A DNA stretch of 24,245 bases from Alphaproteobacteria bacterium (GTDB lineage: Bacteria > Pseudomonadota > Alphaproteobacteria > SMXQ01), in NCBI GenBank assembly GCA_050480665.1, contig JBJHAU010000001.1:1-24245 (forward strand), in the 5' to 3' direction. Below, in pieces: positions 19,816 to 23,324 of this stretch (positions are counted from its first letter, which is position 1; each line of letters begins with the position of its first letter). The position numbers were made by a program, and so were the translations under genes. The notes below the pieces were generated by a model. It was not told the origin of the DNA. It saw only the letters and a program-made list of their open reading frames with translations, and did no database searches.

Positions 19816-19901
19816 GATATTCGTTTGCTCCTCAGATTCCTGATCTCTCGGATGGGTTTCGATTCTTCGGTTCTGATGCGCTTTTGGCTCTGATACGGAT
19901 G

Positions 19902-19973
19902 TTCCGAAACCCGTTCCGCCCGGGCTTCCGGCCCCGTGATTCCGGTTCAGCGCTTCCGGTGTCGTGCTTCCGG
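19902..19973 (-). repeat. Six phased TTCCG motifs (CGGAA on the asd sense strand); last four at exact 14-bp period
   Basis: ttccg at 19902, 19914, 19926, 19940, 19954, 19968; gcttccgg in three copies. Confidence 0.75.
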
Positions 19974-20090
19974 CAAGAATCCTGTCAGGGCCTCGCCGGG
20001 CCTGGATACTCTCTGGAGATACTCTCCGGGCTGCCCGAAACGGAGACGCCCGCACGACAGACCATCGCACGGGCACCGAAAGAGGGGATA

Positions 20091-20119
20091 AGACTAACGG
20101 ATGACGATGGGAAACACAA
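20091..20119 (-). promoter_or_regulatory. Candidate sigma70 promoter for asd: TTGTGT-N17-TAGTCT
   Basis: Hexamers at 20119-20114 and 20096-20091. It implies a ~270-nt leader containing the CGGAA array. Confidence 0.45.
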
Positions 20120-20400
20120 GGCCGACTCCGGGAACGGGGCGGCATTCCCTCGCCTTCGCCTTCCCTTTGCTTTCCTTGCTCCCCCCCTTCCCGATCCCGT
20201 TTCCCTCCTCTTCGCCCCCATGGCGCCAGAACGACACCGAAGGATACGGGAAGGATACGGGAACCGGAATGAACGACGAGGGACAGAACAGATACAGATC
20301 ACGAAGGGAAGGGACGGGGCAGGCTTCCCCCAGGCTTCAACCAAGCTTCTTTCAGGGAGCCCCCGCTCCCGAAAACCCGCCCCGTTGCCGGATGAACAGC

Positions 20401-23163
20401 TCAGACGAAATAGAAATCATTGGCCGTGAGCTGCGAGGCCTTCACCCCCACCAGCGTGACATGGTCGCCACCGCCGAAATCGATACGGCTGTGATTGCCG
20501 AGATCGATGATGGTGAGATCGCCGAAGCCGGCAAGCCCATGATCGCGGACGTCGACGATGTCGCTGCCCTGGTTGAAATCCAGAATCACATCGGCAGAAC
20601 CGCCCGGCGAGAACACGAAGCCGTTCATTCCGCCGCCACCCCACATCATGTCATTGCCGGTGCCGCTGAAGATCCAGTTGTCGCCCGCACCGCCGAACAG
20701 CATGTTGTTGCCGGCATCGCCCCACAGGGCATCATCGCCCGTCCCGGCGAACAGCCAGTCGTCGCCGGAACCACCCATCAGATAGTTCCAGCCCTCGATA
20801 CCGAAGATCCAGTCGTTGCCGGCATTGCCGAACAGCCAGTCATCGCCAGAACCGCCGAACACCCAGTCGTCGCCGGCCTCGCCATAAAGGACATTGTCGC
20901 CTTCCTGGGCAAACAGCCAGTCGTTGCCAGCGCCGCCATAAAGGTAATCATTGCCGGAACCGGCGAACATCCAGTCGTTGCCGGCGCCGCCCCAGGCGCT
21001 GTCATCGCCATCGCCGGCGAAGATCCAGTCGTCCCCGGCACCCCCGGAAAGCTCGTCATTGCCTGCGCCACCGAACAGCCAGTCATTGCCTTCACCGCCC
21101 CAGAGGCTGTCATTGCCATCGCCGCCGAACAGCCAGTCGTCGCCGGCACCGCCCACAAGCCAGTTCTCTCCCTCGCCGGCGAAGATCCAGTCGTCGCCCT
21201 CGCCACCCCGAAGGTCATCGTCGCCGGTGCCCCCGAACAGCCAGTCGTCGCCCGCACCGCCATCGAGGAAATTGTTGCCGGAACCGGCAAACAGCCAATC
21301 CTGTCCGGCACCGCCGTATAGGGAGTCGTTGCCCGCCCCGCCGAACAGCCAGTCATTGCCCGGACCGCCCTTGAGAACATCGTCCCCATCGAGGCCGAAC
21401 ATCACATCGTGGCCCTTGGTGCCCTTCAGCGCATCGTCGCCCTGGGTGCCATAGATCCAGTTGTGCGAACCCGAAGCGGAAGGGGTCAGGGCCGTGGTGG
21501 CCAGAACGACCGTCATCGGGTTGACCGCAAGCCAGCTTGAAATGCTCGGCTGAGGATCGCCCTTGAGGATGAAGTCGCTCTTGCTCAGATCCGACGGATC
21601 GACACCAAGCAGGGTGATGCTGCCGCCACCCCACTGGAAGGTGATGGTGGTGGCATAGCCATCGCCGTCGATCTTGACGTTGCTGAAATCGGAGATGTTC
21701 ATCGGATGAAGGTTGATGCGATCTTCCCCCGGGGTGAAGTCGAGAATCAGATCATTGCTGCCCCAGGCCTTGACGAACACATCCTTTCCCGCACCGCCGA
21801 ACAGGGTGTTGCTGCCCGCGCCGCCGATGATCAGATCATTGCCCGAGCCACCGAACAGCCAGTCATCGCCATGCCCGCCTTCAAGAACATTGTTGCCACC
21901 GACGCCGAACATCCAGTTCTCGCCGTTCCAGCTTTTCAGGTGATCGTTCCCCTCACCCCCGAAAATCCTGTCGTTGCCGCTGCCGCCGGTGATCGTGTTG
22001 TTGCCGGAGACGCCGAACAGCCAGTTTTCGCCGGCATGACTTGTGATGGTGTCGTTGCCGGTGCCGCCGAAGATCCAGTCGTTGCCGCTACCGCCCTCGA
22101 TGGTGTTGTTGCCACCGACGCCGAACAGCCAGTTGTCGCCGGCGTGGCTCTTGATGAAGTCGCTGCCGGTGCCGCCGAACAGCCAATCAGTTCCGGTTCC
22201 GCCGGTGATCTTGTTCTCCCCGGCAACACCGAACATCCAGTTGTCCCCTGCATGGCTGTGCAGCTTGTCGTTGCCCTTGCCACCGAAGAGCATGTCGTTC
22301 CCGGTTCCACCGGTGATCGTGTTGTGTCCGCCGACGCCGAACATCCAGTTGTCGCCGGCCCAACTCGAGATCTTGTCGTTGCCAAGGCCGCCGAACAGCA
22401 GATCATTGCCGCTGCCGCCGCTGATCTGGTTCTTGCCATCGACACCGAACATGATGTTGTTGCCGGCCCAGCTCGAGAGCTTGTCGTTTCCGAATCCGCC
22501 CCACAGCCAGTCGTTGCCGGCACTTCCGCTGATCGCGTTGTTGCCGTCGGTTCCCCAGACGACCTTTCCGCCGCCAGGCTGCCATGAACCCGCGTTAAGG
22601 GTCGAGCCGTCACTTCCCCACAGGACCAGGCCATCAGGCATGGGATCGCTGAGCGCAGCCTGCTTGTTCGCCGCCGCGAGCTTCTCCGCCTCGGCCTGCT
22701 TTTCCGCCTCGGCCTTGCGCTCTTCCTCGGCCTTCCGCTTCTCTTCGGCCTTGCGCTCTTCCTCGGCCTTCCGCTTCTCTTCGGCCTTGCGTTCTTCCTC
22801 GGCCTTCCGCTTTTCCTCGGCCTTGCGTTCTTCCTCGGCCTTCCGCTTCTCTTCGGCCTTGCGCTCTTCCTCGGCCTTCCGCTTCTCTTCGGATTTCTTG
22901 TCTTCCTTGGTGCGATCATCGGCCTTGGCGCCCTTGAACAGGCCGCTCTTCAGGCCGCAGAACGCCAACACCAAGCCAACAAATCCGCCAATCAGCGAAC
23001 CCAGGCCACCGGCAAGACCGGAGGAGGCAGAAGAAGACCCGGAAGAAGCGTCCGTCTTGCCACCCTTGTGGCCGGCGCCCTTGCCAAAGAAGGATCCCTT
23101 GGAAGAGACCGATGTGGTCGAGACCTTGGAGGCCGAGAACTTGCCGAAAAGCCCGCGAGACAT
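20401..23163 (-). CDS. RTX (hemolysin-type Ca-binding repeat) protein, 920 aa, probable type I secretion substrate, unusual architecture
   Basis: About 60 GGxGxDxUx-type nonapeptides in two blocks (aa ~204-464 and ~563-850). Each block is followed by a D.I.DF..G.D.I.L...ITL.GV...L...DF cap. Strong SD (TAGGAG, 7 nt before ATG). No catalytic domain recognised. Confidence 0.93.
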   Translation of the reverse strand: MSRGLFGKFSASKVSTTSVSSKGSFFGKGAGHKGGKTDASSGSSSASSGLAGGLGSLIGGFVGLVLAFCGLKSGLFKGAKADDRTKEDKKSEEKRKAEEERKAEEKRKAEEERKAEEKRKAEEERKAEEKRKAEEERKAEEKRKAEEERKAEAEKQAEAEKLAAANKQAALSDPMPDGLVLWGSDGSTLNAGSWQPGGGKVVWGTDGNNAISGSAGNDWLWGGFGNDKLSSWAGNNIMFGVDGKNQISGGSGNDLLFGGLGNDKISSWAGDNWMFGVGGHNTITGGTGNDMLFGGKGNDKLHSHAGDNWMFGVAGENKITGGTGTDWLFGGTGSDFIKSHAGDNWLFGVGGNNTIEGGSGNDWIFGGTGNDTITSHAGENWLFGVSGNNTITGGSGNDRIFGGEGNDHLKSWNGENWMFGVGGNNVLEGGHGDDWLFGGSGNDLIIGGAGSNTLFGGAGKDVFVKAWGSNDLILDFTPGEDRINLHPMNISDFSNVKIDGDGYATTITFQWGGGSITLLGVDPSDLSKSDFILKGDPQPSISSWLAVNPMTVVLATTALTPSASGSHNWIYGTQGDDALKGTKGHDVMFGLDGDDVLKGGPGNDWLFGGAGNDSLYGGAGQDWLFAGSGNNFLDGGAGDDWLFGGTGDDDLRGGEGDDWIFAGEGENWLVGGAGDDWLFGGDGNDSLWGGEGNDWLFGGAGNDELSGGAGDDWIFAGDGDDSAWGGAGNDWMFAGSGNDYLYGGAGNDWLFAQEGDNVLYGEAGDDWVFGGSGDDWLFGNAGNDWIFGIEGWNYLMGGSGDDWLFAGTGDDALWGDAGNNMLFGGAGDNWIFSGTGNDMMWGGGGMNGFVFSPGGSADVILDFNQGSDIVDVRDHGLAGFGDLTIIDLGNHSRIDFGGGDHVTLVGVKASQLTANDFYFV
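22711..22890 (-). repeat. Ten 18-bp coding units (36-bp super-unit x5) encoding (EEKRKA-EEERKA)x5
   Basis: aa 92-151 of the RTX protein; near-identical DNA repeats with only synonymous differences. Confidence 0.97.
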
Positions 23164-23207
23164 AACAAGACTCCTAGAGGCATTTTATATAATGATTTCC
23201 TTATATG

Positions 23208-23236
23208 CTTATATGCGCCGCCCTGAACAGAGTCAA
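23208..23236 (-). promoter_or_regulatory. Near-consensus sigma70 promoter of the RTX gene: TTGACT-N17-TATAAG
   Basis: 5/6 and 5/6 matches with 17-nt spacing, in a conspicuously AT-rich patch (about 23164-23250). Confidence 0.75.
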
Positions 23237-23292: not shown

Positions 23293-23324
23293 CTCAGAGC
23301 GAGGCCTCAGAGCGAGGCCTCAGA
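23293..23324 (+). repeat. 13-bp tandem repeat, 2.5 copies
   Basis: ctcagagcgaggc/ctcagagcgaggc/ctcaga between the leuB stop and the RTX promoter. Confidence 0.9.

Follow-up and report, generated by a model that had tools for sequence, protein, structure and literature searches.

A single gene on the minus strand of a 24,245-nt stretch of alphaproteobacterial DNA (assembly GCA_050480665.1, contig JBJHAU010000001.1, positions 1 to 24,245; this whole stretch is hereafter called the window) encodes a 920-amino-acid (aa) RTX protein that, as judged from alignments, is a fusion of two tandem paralogues preceded by a new N-terminal extension of 174 aa. The open reading frame (ORF) occupies positions 20401-23163, and upstream its frame stays open for just seven further codons. 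Neither the 40 relatives in our genome set nor any library protein carries the whole architecture. An earlier note, drawn up from the sequence without database searches, had seen in this gene the best candidate in the window for an undescribed system, which overstates the case: what we find is an unusual RTX variant, one derived gene of a known kind in one uncultured freshwater lineage, and not a new multi-gene system.

The origin of the gene can be traced through a sister genus (g6), where RTX-only genes, one to five in tandem, lie exactly between leuB and asd in five of the six genomes (G005, G014, G018, G021, and G041). The proteins that they encode are 353-391 aa long, run from MAYVPGTSGNDTL... 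to ...NDFLFA, and start directly with RTX repeats, with no signal peptide. The two RTX modules of the fused protein (A and B) and 13 of these sister-genus proteins are collinear over about 355 residues, almost gapless and with an equal repeat count; M175 of the fused protein coincides with the Met at which the stand-alone proteins start, and aa 557 with the point at which the next copy begins. BLASTP identities to the g6 modules are 40-47% for module B and 35-41% for module A, and the two modules are 41% identical to each other. Because the modules are collinear with the stand-alone proteins, M175 falls on their start Met, and the leuB-asd site and an upstream palindrome are shared, the alignments identify the RTX protein as two fused tandem paralogues behind a new extension. 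The simplest history would start from several secreted modules arrayed behind a single regulated promoter; two adjacent genes would then have been fused by read-through, with the spacer of 164-278 nt shrinking to a linker of 23 aa; and ~525 nt of new coding sequence, in part the product of repeat expansion, would have been inserted between the old 5' untranslated region and the old start. The term "orphan," as the earlier note had it, thus fits the neighbourhood only, given that both modules have clear leuB-asd homologues in the sister genus, at 43-48% and 35-41% identity, and that the genome carries a type I secretion system (T1SS) pair on another contig, C139.

The palindrome shared with the sister genus, CATATAAGGAAATCATTATATA, has an invariant core in this genome and in four g6 genomes (L021, L022, L023, and L111), where it precedes the first RTX gene, while the spacers around it are otherwise GC-rich and divergent. 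It probably serves the RTX locus as a common operator or promoter element. The Shine-Dalgarno sequence claimed earlier is there, as AGGAG. The near-consensus promoter stands in part: TTGACT-17-TATAAG is present, but a consensus promoter scan does not call the site, the -10 element being without its final T.

Elsewhere in the family and the class, leuB and asd are adjacent (12-350 nt) or parted by unrelated genes. Across Alphaproteobacteria (loci L025-L114), the length of the junction varies between 12 nt and 7 kb, and among the unrelated genes that it harbours are those for an amidohydrolase, an NRAMP-like transporter, and a small DUF-like membrane protein; it acts as a spot of recurrent insertion. 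The leuB-asd gap of 1.6-2.4 kb in other genera was considered as a source of the anchor and stalk and rejected, as it holds unrelated genes only. A search with asd against other genomes returned distant alphaproteobacteria only, at no more than 74% identity (a Dongiaceae metagenome-assembled genome). An 803-aa RTX gene of G005 (L023:4905-7316, plus strand) was likewise considered as a second fusion and rejected, since it has one expanded block and one cap; with 66 repeat motifs, it heads its array and illustrates within-block expansion as a route to length other than fusion.

The order of parts proposed in the earlier note (leader, glycine-zipper, helical stalk, two RTX blocks, and two caps) is borne out by composition, repeat analysis, Pfam, and AlphaFold2. 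On the whole protein, Pfam reports HemolysinCabind alone (PF00353; 19 stretches, E 4e-132), with no enzymatic, Ig-like, cadherin, or vWA domain, as had been claimed. The protein contains 197 Gly, 1 Cys, and exactly 40 Trp, where a manual count had given about 40. Tandem GGxGxDxUx nonapeptides of the kind that form a calcium β-roll are recognized by Pfam, by their register, and in the predicted model. Block 1 has the 29 nonapeptides previously counted, whereas block 2 has 31 rather than ~32, and the linker, put at ~30 aa, is present but shorter, at ~23 aa. Caps 1 and 2 are 35% identical (E 5e-12). The AlphaFold2 model has a mean predicted local distance difference test score (pLDDT) of 79.6 and a predicted template modelling score of 0.66; both β-rolls exceed pLDDT 90, and confidence is low for aa 1-90, a hinge at aa 164-178, and the linker region at aa 538-564. 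Foldseek matches of the model are to CyaA RTX blocks, a family I.3 lipase, AlgE R-modules, and serralysins, and the NCBIfam matches (RTX toxins, serralysins, lipases, and a glycanase) all fall far below their cut-offs and cover the repeats and cap only. A full-length search of 5.8 billion clusters returned generic RTX similarity only (best match, 38% identity at 68% coverage, with the architecture not shared), as did module B alone against the same library; full-length matches to a characterised family of the same architecture, which would have spoken against novelty, were thus absent from the libraries searched.

A second derived feature is the aromatic face of the β-rolls, which becomes apparent when the strand triplets x7-U8-x9 of successive nonapeptides are read, with alternate strands forming the two sheets. 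Of the 16 strands in one sheet of block 1, 15 follow the pattern W/M/L-x-F/W, and the opposite sheet is polar (Thr/Lys/Ser/His); in block 2, all 11 strands of one sheet read W-[LIMV]-F. The motif [DN]W[LIMV][FWY] occurs 24 times in the RTX protein, at most four times in any of its 120 best RTX matches, and never in the g6 modules, where x9 is mostly Tyr. On this comparison, the family already had an aromatic stripe, of which the Trp-x-Phe ladder is a derived, sharpened form. Such a uniform face on a β-roll is unusual and designed-looking, and it is of interest for protein engineering on RTX scaffolds.

The N-terminal extension, by comparison, has no detectable relatives in the libraries searched. 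Specifically, aa 1-85 gave no Pfam match and no match among 1.84 billion representatives, aa 1-90 gave none among the shorter proteins of the 5.8-billion library, aa 1-200 gave no usable match in the ESM Atlas, and aa 1-180 gave compositional Pfam matches below threshold only; these libraries seem not to hold the RTX protein itself, and their coverage of such recent metagenomes is accordingly limited. The extension is nevertheless coding, because the GC content at third codon positions (GC3) in frame across aa 1-175 is 0.75-0.80, equal to that of asd and leuB and lower in the other frames; because M175, the only internal ATG across aa 1-175, has no Shine-Dalgarno sequence ahead of it; and because population variants contain in-frame indels and, in aa 1-72, three of three listed differences that are synonymous. 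The leader carries the words GLFGK and SFFGK and is modelled at pLDDT about 30. The hydrophobic stretch that follows contains G49xxxG53 and G55xxxG59xxxG63, and the sole Cys of the protein, C69, lies at its end, in L66-A67-F68-C69. The stalk is built of 18/36-nt repeats (KAEEERKAEEKR), with the 36-nt unit present in 5.1 copies at 95% identity (Tandem Repeats Finder rows 22707-22892), and its E/K/R fraction reaches 0.83 in a 60-aa window. With alternating E and K/R blocks, predicted helicity, and no hydrophobic heptad, the stalk has the marks of an ER/K single α-helix in the model. It ends in a hinge (aa 162-174; pLDDT 40-47) that contains LAAA (aa 162-165) and QAAL (aa 168-171).

That the gene is real is evident from populations other than the one assembled. 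The source genome is metagenome-assembled (2.2 Mb, 327 contigs, 91% complete), and DNA of the RTX gene was found in runs of three studies, of mine tailings, lake water, and freshwater. In the independent freshwater metagenome, the fused gene recurs at 97.7% identity with its frame unbroken; a 2248-nt contig corresponding to 20450-22697 bridges cap 1, the linker, and module B with 51 differences and 0 gaps. In contigs of two runs (lake water and freshwater), 15 nt inserted in frame at 22903-22908, directly behind the hydrophobic stretch, duplicate DRTKE. Among the 33 best-supported population differences, 20 are synonymous, and those that alter the protein are concentrated in cap 1. In other runs, short-read contigs end at the 36-nt stalk repeat, and stalk length may vary between populations. 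Because of the gapless independent contig, the in-frame indels, and the mostly synonymous differences, the gene is neither an assembly artefact nor a decaying chimera, the latter having been named earlier as grounds for abandoning it. Further, two RNA libraries yield contigs that match the gene in part, the start region (23023-23175) among the matched parts, and leave other parts uncovered; these contigs give a weak hint of transcription, as DNA can occur in such libraries.

The stand-alone g6 modules are without a signal peptide, and they therefore belong to a type I-kind family that needs a T1SS. The search for T1SS genes elsewhere in the genome, as the earlier note had advised, located a PrtD-type ATP-binding cassette (ABC) transporter gene (632 bits) adjoining an HlyD membrane fusion protein gene (389 bits) on contig C139, both over curated cut-offs and together the only such pair in the genome. 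The pair is flanked by aspartokinase-like and isomerase-like genes, with no substrate gene beside it, and the RTX ORF is the sole RTX gene found in the assembly. The C-terminal 117 aa of the RTX protein align with residues 496-613 of 617 in a T1SS-secreted family I.3 lipase, and the C-terminal ...NDFYFV resembles the ...NDFLFA end of the stand-alone modules.

From these observations, the reading that we favour, although only tentatively, is that of a calcium-folded protein that leaves the cell by type I export and stays attached to it through its new N terminus, with the E/K/R helix as a ~12-nm spacer. For the export route, the tethering, and the ligand, we infer the following sequence of events. 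The polypeptide would stay unfolded in the low-calcium cytoplasm and be exported C terminus first through the single PrtD/HlyD-type system of the genome, whereupon each β-roll would fold on calcium, starting at its cap. The basic leader and glycine-zipper stretch would emerge last and hold the protein at the envelope, by membrane insertion or by bundling with neighbouring copies, and the ~12-nm single helix would space both β-rolls from this anchor. The flat Trp-x-Phe face of each β-roll would then probably do the work of the protein, binding a further copy, a glycan, or a lipid surface.

Several observations weigh against this reading. First, TolC/OEP, the outer membrane component (TIGR01844, PF02321), was not found in the 91%-complete assembly; we read this as incompleteness of the assembly and not as absence, and TolC/OEP is present in 28 of 30 family genomes. 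Second, PrtD exceeds its cut-off in just one of the six g6 genomes, and the module family is thus not strictly tied to the PrtD type. Third, the ...DF[IY][LF] end is also kept in the internal cap, where it may be structural rather than a secretion signal. Fourth, aa 49-72 are one-third glycine and have no helix in the AlphaFold2 model (pLDDT about 28), so that this stretch is no more than a putative anchor. Finally, the basic N-terminal region and hydrophobic stretch also look like a signal-anchor for the Sec/signal recognition particle (SRP) route, and co-translational targeting would compete with type I export.

The last of these points leads to the main rival explanation, which we consider unlikely: the protein would be a Sec/SRP-inserted envelope protein with an uncleaved, N-in signal-anchor and an E/K/R helix that crosses the periplasm like TolA domain II, its β-rolls working in the periplasm or at the inner face of the outer membrane after the ancestral type I route was abandoned. 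The seven K/R and single acidic residue before the hydrophobic stretch fit the positive-inside rule for N-in, and the succession of transmembrane segment, charged helix, and C-terminal domain is that of TolA, with a weak compositional TolA match over aa 79-178; the score of that match, however, is 27 bits against a cut-off of 213. An RTX chain, unfolded without calcium, could pass SecYEG. The ancestors of the protein, on the other hand, were of T1SS type without signal peptides, no RTX substrate would remain in the genome for the T1SS pair, and the 48-aa n-region is far longer than that of usual signal peptides. In a still less likely variant, a lipoprotein signal would be cut before C69, the lone Cys, which does lie in L-A-F-C at the end of the hydrophobic stretch, but the F at -1 breaks the lipobox rule.

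The N terminus could alternatively act on cells other than the producer's. Under this explanation, to which we assign a low probability, the gene would encode a released membrane-active RTX protein, toxin- or bacteriocin-like, whose glycine-zipper N terminus inserts or oligomerises in another cell's membrane, by analogy to the N-terminal glycine-zipper channel segment of VacA or to Caulobacter CdzC/D, with the Trp/Phe faces aiding lipid docking. The GxxxGxxxG lies inside the only hydrophobic stretch of the protein, and the Trp-rich flat faces on its β-rolls are of the kind that partitions into membrane interfaces; we also take GLFGK at the N terminus to resemble, weakly, amphipathic membrane peptides. 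An alphaproteobacterial precedent exists in CdzC/D, which are T1SS-secreted, surface-aggregating, membrane-active glycine-zipper proteins, although Cdz proteins are 60-151 aa long and have a double-glycine leader (PMC5380434), which the RTX protein does not. Nor does an immunity-like gene adjoin the RTX gene, which is flanked by leuB and by asd, the latter across 585 non-coding nt. Further, RTX cytolysins have a multi-helix domain where this protein has a single hydrophobic stretch; its NCBIfam RTX_toxin match, at 333 bits, falls short of the cut-off of 1000 and comes from the repeats only; and there is no HlyC acyltransferase match in the genome, this family being silent in control genomes too.

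A bolder version of the tethered reading seems improbable as well, namely that the protein exemplifies a new retention mode for a type I substrate, in which a de novo glycine-zipper anchor and a rigid ~12-nm helix would tether two Trp-laddered β-rolls, once freely secreted, in a display tunable in length and perhaps released by a LapG-like protease at the Ala-rich hinge under the control of cyclic di-GMP (c-di-GMP); its mechanism would differ from that of the LapA plug. The genome does encode a LapG-like BTLCP cysteine protease (PF06035, 56-57 bits; C187:3722-4519, plus strand, locus L116), divergent from the gene for a 733-aa membrane protein with PAS and HD-GYP-type (HD_5) domains (C187:1095-3293, minus strand). 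By analogy, this pairing resembles LapG/LapD logic, but with a partner of the c-di-GMP phosphodiesterase type. Because BTLCP occurs in 26 of the 31 family genomes and, in this genome, is unlinked to the RTX gene or the T1SS, the protease and the hinge motifs LAAA/QAAL are only a lead. Several other genera of the family have a LapB-like T1SS ABC gene, encoding 750-850 aa, at a distance of 1.5-2 kb from that for BTLCP (G043:C86, G006:C324, G019:C38, G010:C92, and G042:C365). Classical Lap-type systems therefore exist in the family, although not at the RTX locus.

The weakest alternative, that two genes were misjoined in assembly or that a pseudogene acquired an accidental upstream frame, is largely refuted and highly improbable: highly repetitive as the gene is, and fragmented as the assembly is at 327 contigs, with short-read contigs ending at the stalk repeat, the independent contig crosses the linker into both modules without gaps, GC3 is that of coding sequence throughout, synonymous differences are in excess, indels are in frame, and a Shine-Dalgarno sequence precedes the first ATG.

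The remainder of the window is devoted to the tricarboxylic acid cycle and amino-acid housekeeping (sucA, sucCD, mdh, nadC, sdhCDAB, asd, and leuB), and, as stated earlier, it contains no T1SS or other secretion genes. An Rfam search of the window gave no match, and repeat scans of the two flanking spacers showed nothing notable. A scan for terminator-like sites found none 3' of the RTX stop; the single minus-strand site, at 23093-23110, is within the coding region near its 5' end. The 585 nt between the RTX stop and the asd start (19816-20400) hold no convincing ORF, Rfam match, or predicted terminator, and they may represent what is left of lost module genes or a leader of asd. Directly downstream of the leuB stop codon, at 23293-23318, lies a perfect 13-nt tandem duplication (CTCAGAGCGAGGC x2). 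The features of the gene and its control region are collected in Table 1.

Table 1. Features of the RTX gene and its upstream region, in window coordinates.
Feature	Position	Strand	Remarks
Stop codon of the RTX gene	20401-20403	-	From ORF reading
RTX module B, aa 557-920	20404-21495	-	β-roll block 2 and cap 2
Cap 2, aa 851-920	20404-20613	-	pLDDT about 90; C-terminal end ...LTANDFYFV
β-roll block 2, aa 572-850	20614-21450	-	31 nonapeptides
Linker, aa 534-556	21496-21564	-	~23 aa (KGDPQPSISSWLAVNPMTVVLAT); pLDDT below 50; at the position of the former intergenic spacer, by alignment
RTX module A, aa 175-533	21565-22641	-	β-roll block 1 and cap 1
Cap 1, aa 465-533	21565-21771	-	Homologous to cap 2; pLDDT 60-70
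β-roll block 1, aa 204-464	21772-22554	-	29 nonapeptides in perfect register; 36-aa (108-nt) super-repeat
Charged stalk region, aa 73-174	22642-22947	-	E/K/R-rich, repeat-encoded
Predicted single helix, aa 91-170	22654-22893	-	AlphaFold2 pLDDT 77-85
Hydrophobic Gly-rich stretch, aa 49-72	22948-23019	-	Kyte-Doolittle maximum 2.03 at aa 53
Basic Gly/Ser-rich leader, aa 1-48	23020-23163	-	Isoelectric point 10.7; 7 K/R, 1 acidic
Shine-Dalgarno AGGAG	23171-23175	-	7 nt ahead of the ATG at 23163
Upstream control region	23186-23236	-	TTGACT, 17-nt spacer, TATAAG, and AT-rich near-palindrome
AT-rich near-palindrome	23186-23207	-	CATATAAGGAAATCATTATATA, 22 nt; conserved with the sister genus
TATAAG (-10-like)	23208-23213	-	From sequence reading; 17-nt spacer from TTGACT
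TTGACT (-35-like)	23231-23236	-	From sequence reading

If the extension does tether the protein, then the locus records the passage of a freely secreted RTX protein to a cell-bound one by way of tandem genes, read-through fusion, and a new anchor and spacer, with the ancestral state still present in the sister genus for comparison. It would also pose a topological question for type I secretion, that of a substrate with a C-terminal signal gaining a Sec-like N terminus. If the extension does not tether it, then the protein is another uncharacterised calcium-binding exoprotein of a freshwater bacterium.

The fit of the protein to known classes can be judged class by class, and the earlier view that it fits none of the toxins, enzymes, adhesins, and S-layer proteins holds. 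As for RTX cytolysins (NCBIfam NF033943), the 333 bits against a cut-off of 1000 come with a single hydrophobic stretch of 24 aa, and HlyC (PF02794) finds no match in this genome or in any control genome. A catalytic N-terminal domain, as in RTX enzymes, was not found by Pfam or NCBIfam. The S-layer protein RsaA is absent from the 36 PDB sequence matches, and its structure (6p5t) aligns by Foldseek with a template modelling score of 0.15-0.19 and a root-mean-square deviation of about 27 Å. Lipoproteins follow the lipobox rule [LVI][ASTVI][GAS]C after a short signal peptide (PROSITE PS51257), which L66-A67-F68-C69 breaks with F at -1 and with a 48-aa n-region ahead of it.

The nearest relatives, the g6 stand-alone proteins of ~355 aa, share the leuB-asd site, the upstream palindrome, the repeat number, the cap, and the ...DFLFA-type end, but they are single modules without an N-terminal extension, have mostly Tyr rather than Trp/Phe at the exposed strand positions, and are uncharacterised. 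Calcium-driven, cap-first folding is established for CyaA and is the mode expected for the RTX protein here. In sequence and fold, the best matches are the RTX region of Bordetella CyaA (PDB 7usl, 7rah, and 6sus) and the AlgE R-modules (PDB 2ml1 and 2agm), which likewise have tandem β-roll blocks with their own cap and linker. CyaA differs in having five blocks, which are preceded by a catalytic domain, a multi-helix hydrophobic domain, and acylation sites, while the AlgE R-modules are ~150 aa long and attached to an epimerase; both are without an N-terminal anchor, E/K/R helix, or W-x-F ladder. Small rhizobial exoproteins such as NodO resemble the ancestral module by description: they are short, consist of nearly nothing but nonapeptides and a C-terminal signal, and leave the cell through a PrtD/PrsD-type T1SS. 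NodO, however, lacks both anchor and stalk, and its repeats are far fewer.

For the extension, the retained adhesins LapA and MpIBP embody the same idea, that of a T1SS substrate that stays on the cell through its N terminus, the last part out. The RTX protein differs from them in that it has, as judged by Pfam, no folded retention module and no Ig-like extenders, and the LapA system uses a LapB-type transporter rather than the PrtD type found here. LapG cleavage sites follow the rule (T/A/P)AA(G/V), whereas the RTX protein offers only LAAA and QAAL. TolA domain II and ER/K helices provide the model for a transmembrane-like segment followed by a long Lys/Glu/Ala-rich helix, here a possible ~12-nm spacer, although the match to TolA is compositional only (NF007065, 27 bits against a cut-off of 213, aa 79-178) and domain III is lacking. 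Each of these parts has a precedent: tandem β-roll and cap blocks occur in CyaA and AlgE, a T1SS substrate is retained through its N terminus in LapA, and ER/K helices and glycine zippers are known as well. What is new is the combination of these parts in one protein, together with an N-terminal extension without relatives, a uniform W-x-F face, and a fusion origin that can be traced.

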